DNA of 64,000 nucleotides from a virus, in the IMG/VR virus record IMGVR_UViG_3300037337_000170, positions 1 to 64,000 of that record; one strand, 5' to 3'. The translations under genes and the position numbers were made by a program. Shown here piece after piece: positions 7,186-30,436 of the stretch (its first letter is position 1; every line of letters starts with the position of its first letter). The notes below the pieces were generated by a model. The model had not been told where the DNA came from and made no database searches. It worked only from the letters and a program-made list of their open reading frames with translations.

Positions 7186-7761
7186 GTGCAAAATGTCATT
7201 CACCACCCGGCTGCATATGAAGCCGCCACCAAGCGTCGTATCATTCAAAATGCTTCCATTACATTTTTTAAAACTGTAGTCGATGCCCAGGCTTTGGTGG
7301 CATTTATGTTTGACTCGGAGTATCGCGGCGATCAGTTCATGGCGTCCCTGGTAGCTGCCTACGCCAACTTCGGTAAATTGACCGAAAAACAATGTCAGGC
7401 TATCCGCAACTCTATGGTGCGGCAGGCTGAATACAAAATTGCCCGGGATGCTGCAATTCTGAAAAAGAATGAGGGCCTTAGCTATATTGCCTCTGTTGGT
7501 GATAAAAAAGTAGCTATTAAACTCACGGTCAAAAAGATCGTCCAGATTCAGGGCGCTTCTTTCTCTTACTACGATTCAGGTGTTTCTAACCTGTATATCT
7601 GCGAAGATGCTGCCGGCAACAAGATTACCTACATCGGCAATTCTGAAATGCCCAAGGAAGGCGAAACCGCGGATATTCTTTGCACGATTAAGGCCCACAA
7701 AATCTACAATAATGCCAAGCAGACTGTAATCAACCGTCCTAAGCTTGTTTCCGCCCCCTAA
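7186..7761 (+). CDS. hypothetical early protein, possible C-terminal OB-like beta domain
   Basis: GTG start with AAGGA SD behind promoter. Confidence 0.65.
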   Translation: MQNVIHHPAAYEAATKRRIIQNASITFFKTVVDAQALVAFMFDSEYRGDQFMASLVAAYANFGKLTEKQCQAIRNSMVRQAEYKIARDAAILKKNEGLSYIASVGDKKVAIKLTVKKIVQIQGASFSYYDSGVSNLYICEDAAGNKITYIGNSEMPKEGETADILCTIKAHKIYNNAKQTVINRPKLVSAP

Positions 7762-11791: not shown

Positions 11792-12178
11792 ATGATCCTC
11801 TCTGCTTTTGATAACAAGATCTTGAAACAACTCATGCTTATGTGTGAGGATATCCCCAGAGTAGGCTCTGGTCGATTAGCTGCTTGTATTGTCTTGAAAA
11901 AGGGCATTGTCGCGTTTGGTATAAACTCTACCAAAACTAGTACCCTAATGCACTTCTTCAATAAACATCCTGAGGCAGTTCAAATTCATGCCGAGATTGC
12001 TGCCATCCATAATGCTAGGAAACGCCTATCGGATAAGGACCTGAGTAAGTCAACCCTCTACATTGCACGAACTAAGATCGTTGATGGAATTACAGTTTCT
12101 GGCCTTGCTGCTCCATGCTGTGGTTGTGCAAGAGCTATCAAACACTTTGGAATTAAACACGTGGTATACACTGAATAA
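11792..12178 (+). CDS. cytidine/dCMP deaminase-fold protein
   Basis: HAE...PCCGC zinc-binding deaminase motif. Confidence 0.8.
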   Translation: MILSAFDNKILKQLMLMCEDIPRVGSGRLAACIVLKKGIVAFGINSTKTSTLMHFFNKHPEAVQIHAEIAAIHNARKRLSDKDLSKSTLYIARTKIVDGITVSGLAAPCCGCARAIKHFGIKHVVYTE

Positions 12179-21126: not shown

Positions 21127-22107
21127 ATGTATAAACTTGGGTTAGTTGTTGGAAAATTCTGCCCGCTTCACCTTGGGCACAAGTATGTTATTGATACAGC
21201 CTTTGCTCAGAGTGAAAAAGTAGTAATTATCTCCTACACAAGCAAAAATTACTACCCTGCCGCCAATCGGCGTCTCTGGCTCGCCTCCACGTACCCAAAA
21301 GCAATCGTAATCGTGCCAGAATCTGGGTTCCCTGCCGACAATGCACATGAAGATATTCATCGTCACTATTGTGCTCAGTTATTGCTATCACTAAATCTAG
21401 AACCAGGTGCTGTATTTGGTAGTGAAGATTACATATTGGGCTTTGCAGAATATCTCTGTGGTTACTTTGAAAAAAACGGTGACAGGACCAAAGTTAAGCC
21501 CGTTCTCGTGGACGTAGATAGGCTGCGCTTTCCTATATCGGGAACAGCCATTCGACGTGGTAGTGCGTTAATCGAGGATTGGACTGATCCTATTGTTTAC
21601 ACGACACCAGCAAAGAGAATTTTGTTGATCGGCGGGGAAGCATCAGGAAAAACAACTCTGGCCCGGGCCCTTCTTCGAGCTCGGGGGGCATGGGGAATGG
21701 TAGAGGAATTTGGACGGACCTACGGGGAAGCAACCGATCAGCAATACACATTTTCCTCGATGTCACACATTGCAAAAACCCAGGTTAAGGATGAGGAAAA
21801 TCACATGCTATATTACCAACACACCGTTATTGTGTGTGATACTTCTCCTCTGGTTACCAAGTTTTACAGCCAGAAATGGTTTGGTTCGGTCGATCCTATG
21901 CTAGAGATTCTATCTCTTAGGAAATATGATTATGTATTTCTTACCCATCGAGATTTTGAATACAAACAAGAGATCGGTCGTTCTGGTGTCGAGTTCGCCG
22001 AAGAGCAAGAAACCTTTTATATGAAAAAACTTCGGCAACCATGGACTGATCTTTATGGCACCGTTGCCGAGCGGGTCGCAAAAATTCTAAAGGAAATAAA
22101 ACTATGA
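21127..22107 (+). CDS. nadR: NadR-type bifunctional NMN adenylyltransferase / NR kinase (no HTH)
   Basis: GKFCPLHLGH, ISGTAIR, GGEASGKTTL, EFGR, CDT. Confidence 0.9.
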   Translation: MYKLGLVVGKFCPLHLGHKYVIDTAFAQSEKVVIISYTSKNYYPAANRRLWLASTYPKAIVIVPESGFPADNAHEDIHRHYCAQLLLSLNLEPGAVFGSEDYILGFAEYLCGYFEKNGDRTKVKPVLVDVDRLRFPISGTAIRRGSALIEDWTDPIVYTTPAKRILLIGGEASGKTTLARALLRARGAWGMVEEFGRTYGEATDQQYTFSSMSHIAKTQVKDEENHMLYYQHTVIVCDTSPLVTKFYSQKWFGSVDPMLEILSLRKYDYVFLTHRDFEYKQEIGRSGVEFAEEQETFYMKKLRQPWTDLYGTVAERVAKILKEIKL

Positions 22108-23394: not shown

Positions 23395-23615
23395 ATAAAA
23401 TGCAAAACAAAGAAAATACTCCCGGCTTCGTGCCGGGATTGGATTACTGTGCTCTTAATGTACGAGTGAATTCCTTGCTAATGGAACTGTCCGAAGTTCA
23501 GAATAAGTTTCCTCCGGGAAGCAATACATGGTACGATGCGGCAAATTGCCGATACCAACTCGGTAAAGTACAAGATCACATTCTTCGCGTTCGCGGTATT
23601 CAGGGCAACTCATGA
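23385..23615 (+). CDS. hypothetical protein
   Basis: 76-aa ORF overlapping neighbours. Confidence 0.5.
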   Translation: MELNKMQNKENTPGFVPGLDYCALNVRVNSLLMELSEVQNKFPPGSNTWYDAANCRYQLGKVQDHILRVRGIQGNS

Positions 23616-25474
23616 AAAAAGATCTACAGCTCTACTTCGATGCCAAAAGTGCCTATTACTCCGGCGAGCCTATTCTTTCGGATTACGAGTTTGACACGCT
23701 AGAAGTTGAGTTGGCAAAAACCAACCCCGATATTCTAAAGCGAGTTGGTTTTAATGATCGCACCGGAGCAGAAAAACTACCTGTTATGATGGGCTCTCTG
23801 GATCAACTCCACAATCAAAAAGAATGGGTAAACTGGAAAACTAAATTCCCAGGCGAGCTTGGCTTTGTTATTACCGAAAAAATTGATGGTAACTCTTGTC
23901 TGATGCAATATAAAAATGGAATTCTAGTCAACTCATGGTCACGCGGCGACGGTGTATCAGGCGCATCTAACATTCGACATACAAGCAAAATGCAATTGCC
24001 ACAGTATATAGAAAGCCGGTTCACTGGGTTTATTCGCGGTGAACTTGTAGTTCCTACTGCTGATTGGAAAAATCTACTTTCAGAAGCAGACCGTGATTAT
24101 GCCAATGCCCGCAACTTTGTAGCTGGTTTTCTTAACAAGACAGAAGGTCAAAAAGAACTTTACAAATACTTTGTTTTTGTCGCATTCGAGTTGATTAATG
24201 ACCAAAAGCTTTCAAAGACTCAACAGTTACAATTGATGAACCTCTATGGCTTCGATACACCAGAATACAGCCATATCTCAGAAACTTGTTCTTATGCCGA
24301 TCTGGAAAAGTTCATTAGCAAAATGTTGCAAGATAGTAAATATGAACTAGACGGGCTTGTGGTAGAGGTCGAATCTGCAAAATATCGTATTTTTACCCCT
24401 ACTGAAGATGACCTAAATCCACCATTTTCAGTTAAGATCAAGCTTGTCTCCGAGGGTGTAGAAACCACTATTCGAGAAATTGAGTGGTCTGCATCGAAGG
24501 ACGGTCTACTTAAGCCAGTAGTTCTAATTGAGCCTGTTCAATTAGACGGTGTCACTATTTCAAGATGTACGGCATATAATGCCAAGTTTGTAAAGGATAA
24601 CAAACTTTGTCCAGGGTCTATCATTAAAATTGTTCGCAGTGGGCAAGTAATCCCGAAAATTGTTGGGTTTATCAGTTCCGGTATCGACCTTGAGCTATAC
24701 GATGAATGGTTCTATTCTCAATTTGATGATAATGTAGAGTGGAATGAGACAAAAGTCGATCTAATTCATGCCTCTGGGGCAGGGTTAATGGCTCAGAAAG
24801 TCAAACAACTTGAATACTTTTTTCATAAACTGGAAATCGACTTCGTTGGTCCTGGCGCAGTTTCAAAGTTAATCGAAGCCGGTTACATTGAACCCACACA
24901 AATTATTACTAATCAGTCCATATTGAGAGATGTAATTGGCGAAAATGGTCGTAAGGCAGAACTGATTATGAATAAAATTCTAACCAGTGTAACTCCACAA
25001 CGACTATTCGCAGCACTAGGTGTATTCGGGCGCGGGATGGGTGAGCGAAAACTAAAGGTCCTATTCACTCGATTCTCGGTCGAAGAAGTTCTTGGTGGAA
25101 AACTAACAGAGAGTCAATTGTGCCAACTAGATGGCTTCGATGTCAAATCAGCAAAACTTATTATGCTGAATGCATTTAAAGCCCACACAGTATATTCGCA
25201 GATTAAATCATCGGTTACTTTCACGGTCGATAAACTTGAAACTAAAGGTTCGGGCGCATTCAATAATCAGATTCTGGTTGCTACCGGGGTACGGTTGTCT
25301 CCCGAGTTGATCGAGAAAATTCAGGTCCTAGGCGGTACGGTAACAGATGCATTTAACAAATCAACAACAATGTTGATCGCTAAAGACCCGAGCTCGACTT
25401 CAGGTAAAATGGGAAAGGCCAAAGCTATGGGTATCAAGGTTATTAGTTTGGCACAACTAATGGAGATGTTATGA
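23612..25474 (+). CDS. ligA: NAD-dependent DNA ligase
   Basis: Ia domain YY..EP.LSD.EFD, MGSL, EKIDG, SRGDG, RGE, NARN, DGLVV, OB (RSGQVIP), HhH, BRCT. Confidence 0.93.
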   Translation: MKKDLQLYFDAKSAYYSGEPILSDYEFDTLEVELAKTNPDILKRVGFNDRTGAEKLPVMMGSLDQLHNQKEWVNWKTKFPGELGFVITEKIDGNSCLMQYKNGILVNSWSRGDGVSGASNIRHTSKMQLPQYIESRFTGFIRGELVVPTADWKNLLSEADRDYANARNFVAGFLNKTEGQKELYKYFVFVAFELINDQKLSKTQQLQLMNLYGFDTPEYSHISETCSYADLEKFISKMLQDSKYELDGLVVEVESAKYRIFTPTEDDLNPPFSVKIKLVSEGVETTIREIEWSASKDGLLKPVVLIEPVQLDGVTISRCTAYNAKFVKDNKLCPGSIIKIVRSGQVIPKIVGFISSGIDLELYDEWFYSQFDDNVEWNETKVDLIHASGAGLMAQKVKQLEYFFHKLEIDFVGPGAVSKLIEAGYIEPTQIITNQSILRDVIGENGRKAELIMNKILTSVTPQRLFAALGVFGRGMGERKLKVLFTRFSVEEVLGGKLTESQLCQLDGFDVKSAKLIMLNAFKAHTVYSQIKSSVTFTVDKLETKGSGAFNNQILVATGVRLSPELIEKIQVLGGTVTDAFNKSTTMLIAKDPSSTSGKMGKAKAMGIKVISLAQLMEML

Positions 25475-25644
25475 GTCAAGAAGCAACAGAATTTCTCTGC
25501 CATGTGTGTAATGAGTGGATACCTAAAACCAGTTACAAAACCCATGTGCTGACTCATTATCGAGAATCAGACTTTATCTTTCCTGTCACTGTCGAGGATA
25601 TGAAGCGTCGCTTTGAGCCTCTTGGCTACTACACCGAGCGATAA
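25471..25644 (+). CDS. small C2H2-type zinc-finger protein (57 aa)
   Basis: FLCHVC-x11-HVLTH; GGAG SD; ATGA overlap with ligase. Confidence 0.6.
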   Translation: MSQEATEFLCHVCNEWIPKTSYKTHVLTHYRESDFIFPVTVEDMKRRFEPLGYYTER

Positions 25645-25698: not shown

Positions 25699-26664
25699 AT
25701 GACAGAACCTGTTCAGACAAAATACCCAATTTATGTAATTTCAAAATCCAGAGCCAGTACCTTATGGACTGTTCGTACACTTGAAGAATGCGGCTGCACC
25801 AACTATCGATTGGTAATTGAACCGCATCAATACGAAGATTATAAAGTAGGTATGCTTGAGCGTGGCTTTGATCCTGCTAAACTTCTTCTATTACCTTTCA
25901 GTAACCTAGGGCTTGGTAGTATTCCAGTTAGAAATTGGGTCTGGGAACACTCAATTTCCTTAGGTGCTAAAAGGCATTGGATTCTTGACGATAATATGCG
26001 ATATTTTTATCGGGTATATCGTAATACTCGAATGCGTGTTAAGTCTATGATCGCACTTAAAGTAGCAGAAGATTATAGTGACAGATTCACCAATGTTGCT
26101 ATGAGTGGACTGAACTATCACTTTTTCGTGCCTAATTTTCTAAATAAAGAGCCAGCCTACTTTAATACCAGAATTTACAGCTGTATTCTACTAGACAATA
26201 CCATTGACGAACGCTGGCGTGTACTTGAGTGGGATGGAAAGCCTGCGCCGTTCAATGAGGATACTGATCTATCTTTACAGATTCTGAAAAAAGGTTACTG
26301 TACTATTCTACTAAACTCTTTTACTGTTGGCAAGGCCGGCACACATACAATGAAAGGTGGTAATACTGAAGCAGTTTACAAAGTTGGTAACAAAGAAGAA
26401 TTTGATAATCGGTATTCATTTGTAGCATCACTACATAAAGCACATCCAGATTGTGTAACCATCGCCCAAAAATGGGGGCGTCACCATCATCATGTGGATT
26501 TCAGTCATTTTATGAAACATAATAAATTAATCCTGAAGCCAGGTCTAACTTGGCCAGAAGTCTATGAGCATAAACTAAAACTGGTTAAACTGGATGATCC
26601 AAAAAACATGATGGGATCCTATACTGACGCTACAATATCGGATGTTCGTATTGACTTGGAATAA
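25699..26664 (+). CDS. GREB1-like / TET-associated GT-A glycosyltransferase
   Basis: YPIYVISKSR, RNWVWEHS, HWILDDN, NTRIYSCIL, NEDTDLSL, GGNT. Confidence 0.82.
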   Translation: MTEPVQTKYPIYVISKSRASTLWTVRTLEECGCTNYRLVIEPHQYEDYKVGMLERGFDPAKLLLLPFSNLGLGSIPVRNWVWEHSISLGAKRHWILDDNMRYFYRVYRNTRMRVKSMIALKVAEDYSDRFTNVAMSGLNYHFFVPNFLNKEPAYFNTRIYSCILLDNTIDERWRVLEWDGKPAPFNEDTDLSLQILKKGYCTILLNSFTVGKAGTHTMKGGNTEAVYKVGNKEEFDNRYSFVASLHKAHPDCVTIAQKWGRHHHHVDFSHFMKHNKLILKPGLTWPEVYEHKLKLVKLDDPKNMMGSYTDATISDVRIDLE

Positions 26665-26667
26665 ACT

Positions 26668-26949
26668 ATGACTAATGCCTTATCAGAATATATCGGTGTC
26701 GAGGAAAAACTTGACCCAACCAGTTATCATGCCTTTCCAGAATATGATCAGCCTAAATATGATGCGCCGTATATTTTAGAAATCCAAATGGATACTGAGG
26801 CCGATCTCAAAAAGTTTGTTGAACTGGTTGCTGTTGGCTCTGAGTCAATTCTTGATGATGGAGCTAGATCAGTAAAATGTATCTGGTACCCTAAGTTGTT
26901 TACAGGTGAACGCGGCTCTAATGCTCAGTATATTTGGGTGTTAGTCTAG
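26668..26949 (+). CDS. small partner protein of GREB1-like glycosyltransferase
   Basis: PEY.Q...PY...TE.D..KF..L...K.IWYP pattern I recall from genes beside such GTs. Confidence 0.6.
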   Translation: MTNALSEYIGVEEKLDPTSYHAFPEYDQPKYDAPYILEIQMDTEADLKKFVELVAVGSESILDDGARSVKCIWYPKLFTGERGSNAQYIWVLV

Positions 26950-27032
26950 GCTATCTTGCTCACATAAAAATCTAATTCTAATGTGGATTTACCTACCCAA
27001 TTTTCACCTAGAATAACCAATAAGGAAATAAT

Positions 27033-27260
27033 ATGCTATTTGATGAACCAGAAGATAATACTAAACCTTCACCCCATATCGACCGAATGCGTCGTGGCGA
27101 GGGTCGATTTGTTATGGTCCGCTTTCGAAACAAGGCAGACCTGGACAAATTTGCTGATATCCTAGAAATTCCACATATTAAAGCCTTCAAAAAAGGCTCA
27201 CATAAGATTAAATGGTCTGCTGATACTCAGAAAAATAATCCACTAGGCGACTTCATGTAA
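27033..27260 (+). CDS. small protein related to 26668-26949
   Basis: VMVRFRNKADLDKFADIL resembles LEIQMDTEADLKKFVELV. Confidence 0.55.
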   Translation: MLFDEPEDNTKPSPHIDRMRRGEGRFVMVRFRNKADLDKFADILEIPHIKAFKKGSHKIKWSADTQKNNPLGDFM

Positions 27261-27261
27261 G

Positions 27262-27290
27262 TTTACTTTTATTCATGAATATGTTACAAT
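27262..27290 (+). promoter_or_regulatory. early promoter cassette
   Basis: TTTACT-N17-TACAAT. Confidence 0.75.
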
Positions 27291-27314
27291 GACCCTTTAT
27301 AAAATAGAAATAAC

Positions 27315-28157
27315 ATGAAAAAAAACAACGCAAATATCGGAATCGTGGGCTATGGCTTTGTAGGAAAGGCAATTGCACACGGCTTTATTGGCTGTGATCC
27401 GGTGATTGCCGATCCAGCTTTAGGTACCTCATGTAAAGATTTAGTCGTGGCAAACATTAAGTTTGATGCGATCTTTATCGCAGTTCCTACTCCCATGGGT
27501 GAGGATGGTAAAATTGATTCTAGCATTGTCGAAAAGGTGCTAGAAGAACTTAAGGATCTAGATACCTTATTGGTTCTAAAGTCAACAGTCACACCAGACA
27601 TCATCAAGGTATTGGCAGAAAAATACAGCAATTTTGTGTACAACCCAGAGTTTCTAACTGAAGCCAATGCACTAAAAGATTTTGTAGATCCTATCATGCA
27701 TGTAATGGGTGGTAGTTGGGAAAATTGTAAAGATCTAATGGATATCTACGATGACTATTCGGAGTGTAAAAAAGGCTGTCGAATTCTCTATATGACTGCT
27801 GTTGAGGCTTCGTTTGTAAAATATACAATGAATTCATTCCTAGCAGCCAAGGTCCTGTTCTTTAATCAGATCAACGAATTGTGTTCAAAACATTCTGCTG
27901 ATTATAATAGAGTAATTGAAGCAGTAGGAAATGATCCGCGTATTGGTAAGAGTCATACAATGGTTCCCGGGCCCGATGGGCGGCGCGGCGCCGCCGGCCC
28001 CTGTTTTTCTAAGGACAGTTCGGCATTCATTCACTTTTCAAAAAATAAGTTGAGTATCCTAAGAGAAGCTTGGAACTATAATGTAGATATTCGTAACAAT
28101 TATGGCGAGCCGCTGCCCCGTGAAGTAGAACAACATGTCTCATTCAATAAAATTTAA
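27315..28157 (+). CDS. ugd: UDP-glucose/GDP-mannose 6-dehydrogenase family (short form)
   Basis: GYGFVG, AVPTP, KSTV, NPEFL, KY..N.FLA.K, DPRIG, GPCF.KD. Confidence 0.88.
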   Translation: MKKNNANIGIVGYGFVGKAIAHGFIGCDPVIADPALGTSCKDLVVANIKFDAIFIAVPTPMGEDGKIDSSIVEKVLEELKDLDTLLVLKSTVTPDIIKVLAEKYSNFVYNPEFLTEANALKDFVDPIMHVMGGSWENCKDLMDIYDDYSECKKGCRILYMTAVEASFVKYTMNSFLAAKVLFFNQINELCSKHSADYNRVIEAVGNDPRIGKSHTMVPGPDGRRGAAGPCFSKDSSAFIHFSKNKLSILREAWNYNVDIRNNYGEPLPREVEQHVSFNKI

Positions 28158-28178
28158 GATGGTGTGGTAAAAAACAAT

Positions 28179-28197
28179 TGCCCTTCGGGGCATTTTT
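28179..28197 (+). terminator. intrinsic terminator
   Basis: TGCCC-TTCG-GGGCA followed by T-run. Confidence 0.8.
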
Positions 28198-28360
28198 AGT
28201 TGGCTTTTGCTATTAATCTATGTACAAAGAGTTACACCGAGTAGGTCAGTGTTTATTTCCCGCCCCCGGTTTCACGATTATAATAGATTATAAAATCAAG
28301 TTGTTCGGTAAGTAAGTTCATATAGCTAAGTCTGTGGCTACGTCTAGGATTACCACAGAC

Positions 28361-28389
28361 TTTACTTTTATTCTGTAGTGTGTTATAAT
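28361..28389 (+). promoter_or_regulatory. early promoter cassette, antisense to the endonuclease gene
   Basis: TTTACT-N17-TATAAT followed by AGGA and ATG but only a 5-codon ORF. Confidence 0.8.
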
Positions 28390-28413
28390 AATTTTTTAGG
28401 AAAAAATATGCAA

Positions 28414-29451
28414 CTAGAGTTTTAAGTTAGAATACTCTTCTTTTGTTAGAGTATAAAAACCTATGTCTCTATATGTTTTATCCTTAAGTTCTTCAAAGGT
28501 ATAATTTGATAGAAGATATTCTGATCTATTATAAGTTATTTTACATATTTTTCGATCACATTTGACACACCAATATCTAAGTTGCTGTATTATCTTGCCT
28601 GGCTCGAAATTATCTGTGGTATCTGTGATACCAAATGGGGTATGAAACCAGTACTTGAAACTCGGGTTTCTATGACCAATACTTGAGCCAGTCAATTTTT
28701 TAGTTGCTGAAACTTTTGCACCAGTGCCAGCTGGTTTAGGAACCCCTTTAAGGGCTTTAGAGATTTTTAATCTAGAAGCAGGAATCTGTGATACATTTTT
28801 GACACCATATTTTAAAATTATATTTTTCTCAAATTTTAGTTGAATGACTGGTGATTTCATGGCATTGTTAACTCCATACCTTTCTAAATTAGTTTCTTCC
28901 GCTTTTGATTTGAATTCAGGTACCTGAAAAGGATTTTCAAACCCATACCTTTCTAAATTAGTTTCTTCTATTTTTTGTTTAAATTCTGGTACTTGACCCG
29001 GATTTGCAAATCCGTATCTTTTTAAATTGGTTTTCTCAATTTTTTGTTTAGTTGATTGTAATTTCATACCATCTGTAACACCATATTTTTCTAACATTAA
29101 ATCTGAAAAATATTTTGTTCCGAATGCCATATGACCAAAATTGTTGTGTCCATTCAACCAGTCATCTGATCCCGCGCAATCATTCTTCTGAAGAAATAAT
29201 GATTCGTAATCTAGAACATTTATACCACATTCCTCTTTAGTAAGTATCTGAACTACTTCGAATGATTCTAATCCACTGTGTTGTATAAGAGCTTTAACCT
29301 TTGTAGAAGATGTTTGATAGCCATCTTCTGTCATAAAAGTATCTGGATAACAACCAACGGCCCATTTAGCTCCAGCATAAAGTTTTTGAGACTGAATGTG
29401 TCTAATAACATAAAAATATGGAGTGCGCTGATAAATAATTTTGCTGGACAT
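28414..29451 (-). mobile_element. free-standing GIY-YIG-like (Seg-type) homing endonuclease gene
   Basis: YFYVI..KLYAG N-terminus, about 5 repeats of ETNLERYG.ENP.Q.PE.K, NUMOD3-like RLKISKALKG; opposite strand and AT-rich. Confidence 0.75.
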
Positions 29452-29508
29452 AGTAGCCTTTCTGGGTTAGTCTAGAGGTGATAGATGTTAGAGCATCGTG
29501 ATCACCAT
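29432..29508 (+). ncRNA. candidate structured antisense RNA, copy B
   Basis: TAAATA then CTGGAC..GTCTAG and GGTGAT-GATG..CATC-ATCACC stems; covaries with 2140-2217. Confidence 0.6.
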
Positions 29509-29509
29509 T

Positions 29510-29538
29510 TTTACTTTTATAACAAGATGTGTTATAAT
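29510..29538 (+). promoter_or_regulatory. early promoter cassette
   Basis: TTTACT-N17-TATAAT. Confidence 0.8.
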
Positions 29539-29569
29539 TTATTTATGTAAATTTTATTTTGAAAAACTT

Positions 29570-30436
29570 ATGGAACACATTAAGAATGTACTTTGTCTCG
29601 GTGGAGCCGGTTTCATTGGCTCTAATCTCTGTGCTCGTCTAATATCTGAAGGCCATAATGTTTTAAGTGTGGATAATTATTCTACAGGAACTAGATTAAA
29701 TCATGTTCCTGGTGTTGGGTATTGCAATATAAACACAAAGGATATTCATGATCTTGAGTTTAAACCAGACTTGATATTTCACCTAGCGGAATATGCCAGA
29801 GTCGAGCAATCATTCAGTGATATGCGAACTGTATGGGATTCTAATTCAACTGGCACATTTGAAGTCTTAGAATATGCCCTTAAACATAATGCCAAACTCG
29901 TGTATGCTGGATCATCAACTAAGTTTGGTGATATTGGGGCCAATTCTTCTCCATACGCATTTACAAAAGCGAAAAATACTGAATTGGTAAAAAATTACGG
30001 TTCTTGGTATGGTCTAAAATATGCTATTACCTACTTCTATAATGTGGTAGGTAAGAATGAGATTGCAGATGGTAAATATGCCACTGTGATTGCAAAGTTT
30101 GCCAAACTATACTCAGAAGGTAAATCTTTACCAGTTACATTACCAGGAACTCAAAAACGAAACTTCACCCATGTGGACGATATTGTCGATGGGTTGATTC
30201 TAGTTGGGGCCCATGGTTACGGAGATGGATATGGTATCGGTGCACCTGAAGCATATTCTATTATTGAAATCGCGGATATGTTTGGTCTCGATATTGATTA
30301 TCAGCCCGAGGTTCGTGGTAATAGAATGGCTGCAGAACTAATGACTACCCTGACCGAGGAGTTAGGTTGGAGTGCTAAACGTAGCATTAAGGATTATATT
30401 GCTCGACTAGTCGCAAAGGATTTTGATAATGTCTGA
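29570..30436 (+). CDS. NAD-dependent nucleotide-sugar epimerase/dehydratase (extended SDR)
   Basis: GGAGFIG, FHLA, YAGSS, PYAFTK (YxxxK), RNFTHVDD; start at MEHIK. Confidence 0.9.
   Translation: MEHIKNVLCLGGAGFIGSNLCARLISEGHNVLSVDNYSTGTRLNHVPGVGYCNINTKDIHDLEFKPDLIFHLAEYARVEQSFSDMRTVWDSNSTGTFEVLEYALKHNAKLVYAGSSTKFGDIGANSSPYAFTKAKNTELVKNYGSWYGLKYAITYFYNVVGKNEIADGKYATVIAKFAKLYSEGKSLPVTLPGTQKRNFTHVDDIVDGLILVGAHGYGDGYGIGAPEAYSIIEIADMFGLDIDYQPEVRGNRMAAELMTTLTEELGWSAKRSIKDYIARLVAKDFDNV

Follow-up and report, generated by a model that had tools for sequence, protein, structure and literature searches.

The first 64,000 nucleotides of the IMG/VR virus record IMGVR_UViG_3300037337_000170 (the window) carry a cassette of five genes for a glycosyltransferase (GT) of the TAGT (TET-associated glycosyltransferase) family, two small proteins termed sp1 and sp2, a UDP-sugar dehydrogenase homologue and an extended short-chain dehydrogenase/reductase (SDR). 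The cassette probably acts as one unit, which would make an activated sugar and transfer it to phage DNA after replication. The best explanation, with a probability of about 0.55, is post-replicative DNA glycosylation in which a TAGT of two or three subunits draws on a hexuronate-type donor made by the phage. It is preferred in part because relatives pair the same dehydrogenase and SDR with orthologues of the T4 dCMP hydroxymethylase (gp42) and of the DNA alpha-glucosyltransferase (alpha-GT). The cassette consists of:

25699–26664, + strand: catalytic subunit, a TAGT-family GT-A glycosyltransferase of 321 amino acids (aa) without N-terminal extension (Pfam PF20691, phrog_842)
26668–26949, + strand: sp1, 93 aa, pI 4.4, a free-standing copy of the N-terminal ~80-residue module of single-chain TAGTs (family profile)
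27033–27260, + strand: sp2, 75 aa, pI 9.4, a shorter basic paralogue of sp1 without the W..MPEF part (BLASTP, alignment)
27315–28157, + strand: short UDP-sugar 6-dehydrogenase homologue, 280 aa, with PF03721 and PF00984 only; a conserved tail of ~45 residues replaces the UDP-binding domain
29570–30436, + strand: extended SDR nucleotide-sugar enzyme, 288 aa from ATG 29570 (PF01370)

A preliminary description made from the letters alone had reported these five co-oriented open reading frames (ORFs) as a candidate DNA sugar-hypermodification cluster directly after a DNA ligase. Its observation is confirmed and its interpretation partly supported. All five ORFs are present on the + strand downstream of an NAD-dependent ligase, and the family calls are correct: TAGT-family GT-A enzyme and extended SDR by Pfam, and UDP-sugar dehydrogenase family. 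The position after the ligase also holds, except that a 57-aa ORF lies between and that a homing endonuclease on the − strand splits the cluster.

The sp1 module and its carriers

sp1 and sp2 belong to no family in Pfam, PHROGs or NCBIfam, and a Pfam search at E ≤ 1 with sp1 homologues gave nothing meaningful. The two are weak paralogues (BLASTP E 5e-4). sp2 aligns within the sp1 family and is matched in the window by the family profile at 1.7e-19, a value to which sp2 itself contributes as one row of the profile. The same module, about 65 residues long, is found at the N-terminus of single-chain TAGTs: The profile matches residues 21–76 of the fused TAGT L031 (E 1e-14), encoded by a terminally repeated IMG/VR phage, and residues 14–96 of Aeh1p093 (E 1e-13). 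The N-terminal 60–100 residues are matched in the TAGTs of Aeromonas phage Aeh1, Paraglaciecola phage GD1 and the Vibrio phages Kuja and 1.076.O. These profile matches show that sp1 and sp2 are homologous to the segment with which single-chain TAGTs begin, which makes them a putative split-off module of the transferase. The ORFs announced as two small partners are thus present; they are, by homology, not accessory unknowns.

The association of module and transferase is general. Among 46 IMG/VR loci collected with the GT as seed, many of them with short flanks, 40 contain an sp1-like ORF detectable with the profile. Counted per GT ORF, sp1 is located just downstream in 46 cases, just upstream in 24 and fused in 3; none was found for 17. 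Some loci hold two GT ORFs, and several of the 17 lie at contig ends or are second GT paralogues. A profile search of 1.84 billion representatives yielded 2579 clusters (representatives at 50% identity) at E ≤ 0.001, 496 of them at E ≤ 1e-10. The best 150 clusters comprise 122 proteins of 65–133 aa and 28 longer ones.

Twelve of the longer proteins were read. Seven look by eye like ParB_N-sp1 fusions (P0306, P0353, P0377, P0380, P0302, P0341, P0314). P0306 also matches ParB/Spo0J/Noc structures in the PDB (E 0.001–0.007), and P0380 has viral ParB_N proteins as its closest Atlas clusters (0.95–0.96); the other five are called ParB-like by eye. One protein is a candidate HNH-sp1 fusion, with an HNH-like motif read by eye from the sequence. 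Three (P0289, P0309, P0264) have two tandem sp1 repeats followed by a TAGT domain and mirror the two separate genes sp1 and sp2 of the window. The twelfth could be placed in none of these classes. In P0332 (423 aa), sp1-like stretches at about 95–135 and 357–420 are separated by ~220 unrelated residues, perhaps because an intein or an endonuclease has entered an sp1 gene.

A contig scan seeded with ParB_N-sp1 proteins gave 80 loci, and a TAGT domain is present in all 80. In 78 it is encoded by a separate downstream ORF, mostly within ~150 bases and in a few cases up to ~1.6 kb away, and in two it is fused; the match extends over the ParB-like part in 52. No ParB_N domain was found in the genome studied here. 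In these data, the sp1 module always occurs together with a TAGT, be it free, N-terminally fused or carried by ParB_N or HNH proteins. Since the module is never seen without a TAGT and repeatedly brings in DNA-handling domains, it provides the strongest argument for a DNA target, though an indirect one.

How the module might act is suggested by structure prediction. The AlphaFold model of a natural fused TAGT is good (predicted local distance difference test, pLDDT, 88.6; predicted template modelling score, pTM, 0.87). Its residues 11–80 score 83–96, contain two short helices only, and are read as a strap on the GT-A core. sp1 alone is predicted poorly (pLDDT 50.6) and was not suitable for a fold search, as expected because sp1 would be a piece that needs its partner. 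Predictions of a GT-sp1 complex scored 0.76, 0.72 and 0.73 versus 0.58 for an unrelated-partner control; they were counted neither way.

The catalytic subunit

The GT matches the complete Pfam profile TAGT (PF20691; residues 9–221 to profile positions 1–205 of 205) with E 1.1e-27 and 97.7 bits at a cut-off of 27.5, or 98.6 bits at the genome level, and phrog_842 with E 1.3e-32. R78, D97-D98-N99 and N186-E187-D188-T189-D190 are invariant or nearly so in an alignment of 24 homologues. D97-D98-N99 and E187-D188-T189-D190 are also (nearly) invariant in 42 fused homologues, i.e. the acidic motifs of a GT-A enzyme are present. Hydrophobic segments are absent from all cassette proteins. In the closest contigs, L004 and L005, the GT is 93% and 99% identical, respectively. 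A tblastn search with the window GT gave 23 matches, none of them from a T-even record.

The fused TAGT family is large: At least 7996 of the 8000 candidates scored match at E ≤ 1e-10, and some members also bear PF02195 (P0167, P0170). A Foldseek search of the PDB with the fused TAGT model returned neither a solved close relative nor an identification of the N-terminal module. The best hits, POMGnT1, heparosan synthase and TarP, have template modelling scores of at most 0.43 and are generic GT-A fold matches. For GREB1, a eukaryotic relative, protein glycosylation has been reported.

Two further arrangements of TAGT genes were observed. Vibrio phage Kuja (L002:6251–8939) has two TAGTs, and two paralogues are present in many loci (L023:9233–10096, L019, L170:8020–8856, L182, L186), which suggests di-saccharide modifications. 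In L043:689–2446 and also in L044 and L045, a 585-aa TAGT with a C-terminal S-adenosylmethionine-dependent-methyltransferase-like domain (PF13489, E 5e-5) is followed by an overlapping SDR gene; the product may be a methylated sugar.

The short dehydrogenase and the SDR

The dehydrogenase consists of the NAD-binding N-terminal domain (PF03721, 51.6 bits) and the central domain (PF00984, 61.6 bits). With TIGR03026 it scores 135 bits, below the cut-off of 189.8, and is not a canonical member of that family. It aligns to solved UDP-glucose dehydrogenases (UGDHs) up to the region of the catalytic Cys and ends ~50 residues beyond it. An alignment of 25 sequences has GxGxxG, NPEFL.E, K169, N173, C230 and D234 without variation and shows that the protein retains the catalytic residues known from UDP-glucose 6-dehydrogenases. 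Conservation extends to the tail, ..REx.EQH..FNKI. The best 120 homologues all have 220–287 aa and the same two domains, indicating a conserved form of ~275 aa; phage SP-15 and Vibrio phage Kuja encode homologues as well. The assignment to the UDP-sugar dehydrogenases thus stands as far as the family is concerned, with the qualification that this one is atypical and without the UDP-binding domain PF03720. A truncation caused by the neighbouring homing endonuclease was considered and rejected: The gene has its own terminator, and its length is the same in endonuclease-free relatives and in the best 120 homologues.

In four contigs (L007, L009, L010, L011), a three-domain dehydrogenase of 388 aa, with PF03720, is encoded beside an SDR that is 53–57% identical to that of the window. 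A full-length enzyme thus occupies the same place beside the same SDR type, and therefore both forms would do the same job. This suggests that short and long dehydrogenases are interchangeable.

The SDR matches PF01370 with E 4e-40 and 138.1 bits (cut-off 20.9) and contains the motifs GGAGFIGS, YAFTK and GSSTKFGD. Its start is most likely ATG 29570 and not GTG 29498, as judged from the L004 alignment and the promoter position. None of the NCBIfam equivalogs reaches its cut-off. Among solved structures, a dTDP-glucose 4,6-dehydratase-like protein, GalE and UXS1 are the best relatives and equally close (E ~2e-21 to 6e-21). In the alignment with human UXS1, GSSTKFGD pairs with ASTSEVYGD, with Thr opposite Glu and no acidic pair. 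This Glu lies in the active-site stretch S-T-S-E-V-Y-G of UXS1, and the SDR pattern resembles that of 4-epimerases. By this residue, the SDR would fall outside the subgroup of UDP-xylose synthases and UDP-glucuronic acid (UDP-GlcA) decarboxylases, and 4-epimerisation of a UDP-hexuronate is the simplest proposal for its activity. The phage had been supposed to make its own uronate or pentose donor. A uronate is plausible, as hexuronic acid on 5-hydroxymethylcytosine (5hmC) has been described (Pyle et al., bioRxiv 10.1101/2023.12.21.572611); a pentose is disfavoured by the Thr in place of the UXS1 Glu.

Linkage of the transferase and the sugar genes

Apart from the endonuclease, GT, sp1, SDR and dehydrogenase genes are contiguous in the window as well as in L004 and L005, and a block with GT and SDR recurs in 18 of the 46 GT-seeded loci. 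A second set of 81 loci was obtained with the dehydrogenase by an alignment-seeded scan (a single-protein seed gave only 4 loci). In this set, tblastn found the SDR adjacent in 67 loci, TAGT in 28 and sp1 in 26; with profiles, TAGT was found in 31 and sp1 in 28. The GT, with or without sp1, lies within ~3 kb of SDR and dehydrogenase with no primase between in 16 of the 81, as read from the tblastn map, and in L146–L149, L178 and L188, for instance, GT, sp1, SDR and dehydrogenase follow each other without an intervening gene. The earlier view that these genes form one cassette is borne out here and in many other contigs. In relatives, a conserved 308-aa gene is found between GT-sp1 and the dehydrogenase; it was considered as acceptor maker and rejected as primase-like (phrog_9765).

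The pair of dehydrogenase and SDR has a second type of partner. In L191, a homologue of the T4 DNA alpha-GT (E 1e-44 versus 1y6f) is encoded directly 5' of the pair, and L184 encodes a related protein (34% identity to that of L191). An orthologue of T4 dCMP hydroxymethylase (223–226 aa) is located 1–2 kb upstream of the pair in TAGT-less relatives, beside a deaminase-like gene. That of L160 matches 1b49 over its full length (E 1.5e-67), and the hydroxymethylase profile finds such an orthologue in 14 of the 81 loci. With such neighbours, the pair sits in bona fide hydroxymethylcytosine (hmC) glycosylation clusters of some T4-like phages.

The combination of gp42, deaminase-like gene, SDR and short dehydrogenase, between primase and UvsX, was seen in L160:6247–9038, L184:6094–9027 and L191:6059–9028, and suggests that such phages decorate hmC with a sugar other than glucose. 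In L160, a 363-aa protein without relative in the PDB is encoded upstream of the SDR, in place of the alpha-GT. In L206:7158–9280 and L216:7226–9264, a remote TAGT-like protein, matched by the TAGT profile at E 4e-8 and 1e-10, is followed by a protein of 402–405 aa that weakly resembles the C5 cytosine methyltransferases HhaI and HaeIII (E ~1e-3); both are encoded beside gp42, SDR and short dehydrogenase.

Proposed mechanism

In the proposed pathway, oxidation of a UDP-hexose by the short dehydrogenase would yield a UDP-hexuronate, which the SDR would epimerise, most simply from UDP-GlcA to UDP-galacturonic acid. sp1, and perhaps sp2, would bind the catalytic GT as a strap-like subunit. The sp1 module would link the transferase to DNA-handling domains, as the ParB_N and HNH carriers beside TAGTs in other viruses suggest. 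Finally, the GT would attach the sugar to a nucleophile on DNA and so might provide a shield against restriction enzymes and CRISPR nucleases. The cassette sits among replication genes and uses the phage's own promoter motif.

The missing acceptor enzyme and other points against DNA glycosylation

A number of observations weigh against this explanation. The most important is that no enzyme for an acceptor base was found. PF00303 and PF02511 have no match in the 128,647-base record of which the window is the first part. The same holds for PF12851 (TET/JBP), a weak result and no valid negative, as this model matched in no genome at all. Beyond the structural region, 105 more ORFs were scanned with Pfam and revealed no 2-oxoglutarate-dependent oxygenase or C5-methyltransferase among the matches listed; these comprise a dCMP deaminase, a D12 N6-adenine methyltransferase near PolB, which is the sole DNA methyltransferase seen, and a MazZ-like diphosphohydrolase. 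A near-identical contig that reaches 9.3 kb past the record start contains no hydroxymethylase; the genes gained from it encode a second deaminase, an RNase H, Rnl1 and an AAA protein. Another contig extends ~1.4 kb past the other end and holds small ORFs only. A tblastn search with the gp42 orthologues of the relatives gave no hit, either in the genome or in the two contigs that extend it.

The result is the same in other phages with sp1 and TAGT. PF00303 is matched in none of seven further records (G001–G004, G006–G008). Two of these are rated complete: G002 has direct terminal repeats (100% complete), and G007 (192 kb, CheckV 100%) carries GT, sp1, SDR and dehydrogenase. By comparison, both gp42-type records (G005, G009) contain PF00303. 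A gp42 profile, which is narrow and would miss distant thymidylate-synthase relatives, gave no match in the window, in the 46 GT-seeded loci and in the 80 ParB_N-sp1-seeded loci. Within the dehydrogenase-seeded set, it matched in 0 of 28 sp1-bearing versus 14 of 53 other loci. Aeromonas phages Aeh1 and 65, which have fused TAGTs, are listed without gene 42 in the portion of Petrov et al. that was accessible (PMC2993671). Among cultured phages with fused TAGTs, four of five (Kuja, GD1, henriette, Aeh1) encode a PF00303 protein, either synthase or hydroxymethylase. The preliminary description had correctly noted that the acceptor-base enzyme is missing from the window, and this negative now extends to the whole record, the 9.3-kb flank and the seven other records. 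It had also advised to look elsewhere in the genome for a hydroxymethylase or for TET plus a methyltransferase. None was found in the available sequence, with the PF12851 search lacking a positive control, and the hydroxymethyl-pyrimidine acceptor that it assumed has gained no support.

Further points concern single components. PF03720, which binds UDP in all solved relatives, is absent from the dehydrogenase. TAGT is missing, by tblastn, from 53 of the 81 dehydrogenase-seeded loci. The literature on pelagimyophages, as far as the accessible text goes, regards UDP-glucose 6-dehydrogenases and GTs as lipopolysaccharide (LPS)/O-chain genes (PMC7029224). Finally, in the 48-kb Vibrio phage 1.076.O, the gene for the fused sp1-TAGT (L055:6534–7703) is situated between portal and head-morphogenesis genes, an odd site for DNA modification.

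Two deaminase-family proteins are encoded in the available sequence (window 11792–12178; L139:6905–7342), which contains no thymidylate synthase. The MazZ-like protein (dATP/dGTP diphosphohydrolase N-terminal domain PF18909, E 5e-31; locus L051, genome 95.3–115 kb) raised the question of a 2-aminoadenine genome. This was rejected, as the record has no PurZ-type PF00709.

Alternative explanations

The most serious alternative, though an unlikely one, is a target other than DNA. The GT would modify a protein of phage or host, some virion component, or a precursor of an envelope polysaccharide or LPS, and thereby block superinfection or alter host physiology. The missing acceptor-base enzyme here and in the seven other sp1-TAGT records, the O-chain reading in the pelagimyophage literature, the location of the 1.076.O gene, and the protein- and polysaccharide-modifying GT-As that are structurally nearest to the fused TAGT speak for it. 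These structural matches are, on the other hand, to the generic fold only. The block is embedded among replication genes and comprises neither membrane segments nor flippase or lipid-carrier genes, the module is fused to ParB_N and HNH with a TAGT domain in all 80 ParB_N-sp1 loci, and relatives have the same sugar enzymes beside gp42 and DNA alpha-GT orthologues. The DNA target inferred in the preliminary description is accordingly plausible on account of these fusions and neighbours, with the acceptor enzyme still not found.

A bolder version of DNA glycosylation would dispense with this enzyme. It is a speculative proposal that sp1-TAGT is a self-sufficient system which needs no phage-made hydroxymethyl or hydroxy pyrimidine and puts hexuronic acid onto a canonical base, or onto an acceptor made by an enzyme family new to DNA modification. 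Here, sp1, whether free, doubled or on ParB_N or HNH, would dock on the GT-A core and deliver the GT to DNA. It is put forward because the dehydrogenase-SDR pair is associated in the PolB-UvsX island with either gp42 plus alpha-GT or sp1-TAGT, never with both, and because the two sp1-TAGT genomes rated complete (G002, G007) have no thymidylate-synthase-family gene.

It is quite unlikely that the cassette is composed of two independent modules that share a variable island, namely GT-sp1-sp2, working with a host UDP-sugar, and a dehydrogenase-SDR pair of auxiliary metabolic genes that would reshape host nucleotide-sugar pools. Linkage is indeed incomplete. By tblastn, UGDH is present in only 13 of the 46 GT-seeded loci (short flanks are common in this set) and TAGT in 28 of the 81 dehydrogenase-seeded ones. 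Among 23 of the latter that show both PolB and UvsX, nine have TAGT. Phage C48C1 has SDR and short dehydrogenase with no TAGT match, and in L197, L204 and L224 the dehydrogenase stands alone between primase and UvsX. Against this, both units have moved together to the ligase-side site in the phage studied here: Its PolB-Dam-UvsX interval (118.6–123.5 kb), the usual site in relatives, contains no sugar genes, and the block adjoins the ligase instead. In addition, the arrangement GT-sp1-SDR-dehydrogenase is gapless in many contigs (such as L146–L149, L178 and L188, mentioned above), an alpha-GT-type DNA glycosyltransferase fills the adjacent place of the TAGT in L191 and L184, and most GT-As of epimerase-paired clusters are inactive without the epimerase (Pyle et al.).

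Least probable is a variant of the main explanation with oxidation after transfer, in which the short dehydrogenase would act on C6 of a hexose already attached by the GT and not on a UDP-sugar: It would suit the lack of PF03720 (elsewhere in the record, an unrelated ORF at 7474–7722 gives the sole trace, of 12.5 bits), the uniform shortness of the best 120 homologues with their strongly conserved novel tail and the retained catalytic residues, but the 388-aa three-domain enzyme stands in the same place beside the SDR in four contigs, and the short form is found beside a nucleotide-sugar SDR in 67 of 81 loci, which fits a soluble UDP-sugar pathway.

Promoters, terminator and homing endonuclease

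The following elements accompany the cassette:

25471–25644, + strand: ORF of 57 aa separating ligase and GT, with a start that overlaps the stop of the ligase gene
27262–27290, + strand: promoter motif TTTACT-N14-TGN-TACAAT, 25 nt 5' of the dehydrogenase ATG 27315 (motif match)
28179–28192, + strand: terminator-like hairpin and T run just past the dehydrogenase stop, conserved in L005 and L004
28361–28415, + strand: orphaned copy of the SDR promoter (28361–28389) and first 8 bases of the original SDR frame, ATGCAACT (28408–28415) (L005 alignment)
28414–29451, − strand: homing endonuclease, 345 aa (DUF7487, E 1e-25; phrog_3339, phrog_12131)
29510–29538, + strand: promoter motif, 32 nt 5' of the SDR ATG 29570 (motif match, L004/L005 alignment)
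4688, 5494, 7132, 9878, 11390, 17857, 18580, 18815, 19571, 22971, 30744, 31071 and 31280, + strand: further promoter-motif sites (motif match)

The motif TTTACT-N14-TGN-TAYAAT occurs at 17 sites in the window (at most one mismatch; 0.17 expected), all on the + strand and within the first 31.3 kb, with the consensus TTTACTTTTATTC..TG(T/G)TATAAT. A generic sigma-70 scan found 29 sites versus 24.9 expected from shuffles; only the specific recurrent motif is significant. The promoters that had been noted before dehydrogenase and SDR are thus genuine copies of a recurrent phage motif. No such motif is located directly before the GT, so that transcription of GT, sp1 and sp2 presumably starts at a more distant upstream site.

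In the closest contigs L004 and L005, the homing endonuclease is absent and promoter and SDR directly follow the dehydrogenase. The GC content falls to 0.338 in 28001–30000. ATGCAACT, which follows the upstream promoter copy, corresponds to the first bases of an L005-type SDR gene and lies directly against the stop of the endonuclease. The downstream promoter copy leads into an L004-like SDR 5' end. By these alignments, the endonuclease is a recent insertion at the SDR 5' end and would not be a functional part of the pathway; the event looks like intron-less homing with co-conversion of the flanks.

Genomic context

The window covers the first 64 kb of the record, for which CheckV estimates a completeness of ~73%, so that ~37 kb of the genome would lie beyond the available sequence. 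Its gene content (gp6-type baseplate wedge, tail tube, gp5-like hub) is that of a distant T4-like myovirus. The record also codes for gp32, gp44/45/62, gp46/47-like proteins, PolB, UvsX, a DnaB-type helicase, RegA and ribonucleotide reductase. The gp6 homologue shares just 36% identity with its counterparts in Methylophilales phage Melnitz and in pelagimyophages. A megablast search of the region against the cultured-phage collection gave no DNA-level match, and Rfam and tRNA scans of the region found nothing.

The ligase gene (23612–25474) is located upstream of the block. The 57-aa ORF that separates it from the GT has a zinc-finger-like pattern CxxC...HxxxH, as read from the sequence, and no PHROG family; it is 89% conserved in L004 and L005, and its membership in the cassette is uncertain. 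Beside the NAD-dependent ligase, a NadR-like protein (window 21127–22107) and a PnuC transporter for nicotinamide mononucleotide (one of 32 ORFs scanned, window 130–21124) are encoded.

Significance

Sugar coats on DNA are a main route by which phages escape restriction enzymes and CRISPR nucleases, and a source of DNA-marking tools. The sp1 module may explain how TAGTs assemble on DNA or are aimed at it. The short dehydrogenase appears to represent a widespread phage form of UDP-sugar dehydrogenases without the usual UDP-binding domain. The same sugar-supply genes combined with either gp42 plus alpha-GT or sp1-TAGT provide a natural contrast, and the acceptor question can be addressed with five small genes in E. 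coli. Caution is advisable in labelling such dehydrogenases and transferases of marine T4-like phages as LPS genes.

Comparison with known systems

The base J glucosyltransferase JGT and the TET/JBP-associated glycosyltransferases are GT-A enzymes that glycosylate hydroxymethyl pyrimidines in DNA. No JBP/TET-like oxygenase was detected in the window phage (PF12851, searched without positive control). Phage GT-A enzymes have been structurally linked to JGT (Pyle et al.).

Bacillus phage SP-15 encodes a UGDH homologue that is 28.9% identical to the window dehydrogenase over residues 7–211 and, unlike the window phage, has no TAGT match. In SP-15, thymine is replaced by a dihydroxypentyl-uracil derivative, and the modified base carries glucuronate-derived groups, i.e. 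the base pathway is different. Hypermodification of SP-15 DNA is documented (PMC5977210).

The T2/T6 beta-glucosyl-HMC-alpha-glucosyltransferase shares with the window GT the Pfam family TAGT, under which the T6-type second-glucose transferase is filed, the DNA-directed GT-A type and the T4-like phage background (PMC13390438, PMC2993671). In the parts of these sources that were accessible, it adds a second glucose from host UDP-glucose to alpha-glucosyl-5hmC and needs gp42 and alpha-GT, neither of which was found in the window phage. The T-even set for hmC glucosylation (gp42 plus alpha/beta-GT) is likewise not found in the window phage, which has no PF00303. The T4-like relatives with gp42 and alpha-GT (L160, L184, L191) share the short dehydrogenase, the SDR and the PolB-UvsX island. 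They use a dCMP hydroxymethylase and a GT-B alpha-GT homologue (L184, L191), whereas the window phage relies on sp1-TAGT, and no hydroxymethylase is encoded in its available sequence. Thymidylate-synthase homologues can also supply 5-hydroxycytosine acceptors (PMC13326640).

In the literature searched, there is no account of the split or duplicated sp1 module with ParB_N/HNH fusions, although the supplements of Pyle et al. may list such contigs, and none of the short dehydrogenase form or of the alternation between gp42 and sp1-TAGT.

The closest known systems are the GT clusters of Pyle et al. (bioRxiv 10.1101/2023.12.21.572611). According to the accessible part of this work, phage GT-A enzymes with a partner epimerase put hexose, N-acetylhexosamine or hexuronic acid on 5hmC in E. 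coli, the hexuronic-acid-5hmC being formed with or without epimerase, and ~65% of ~25,000 GT contigs have no 5mYOX or ThyS nearby. The subclass II clusters combine, like the window, a DNA-type GT-A with an adjacent nucleotide-sugar SDR. The active-site pattern is R...DDD...EDY/F there and R...DDN...EDTD here. Subclass II has C5-methyltransferase and 5mYOX/TET neighbours, whereas neither these nor a ThyS homologue were matched in the record (PF12851 being a weak search). Unlike subclass II, as far as described in that part, the window phage brings its own short dehydrogenase and has a transferase split from a doubled N-terminal module. The cassette is a variant of the known phage DNA-glycosylation clusters of GT plus epimerase.

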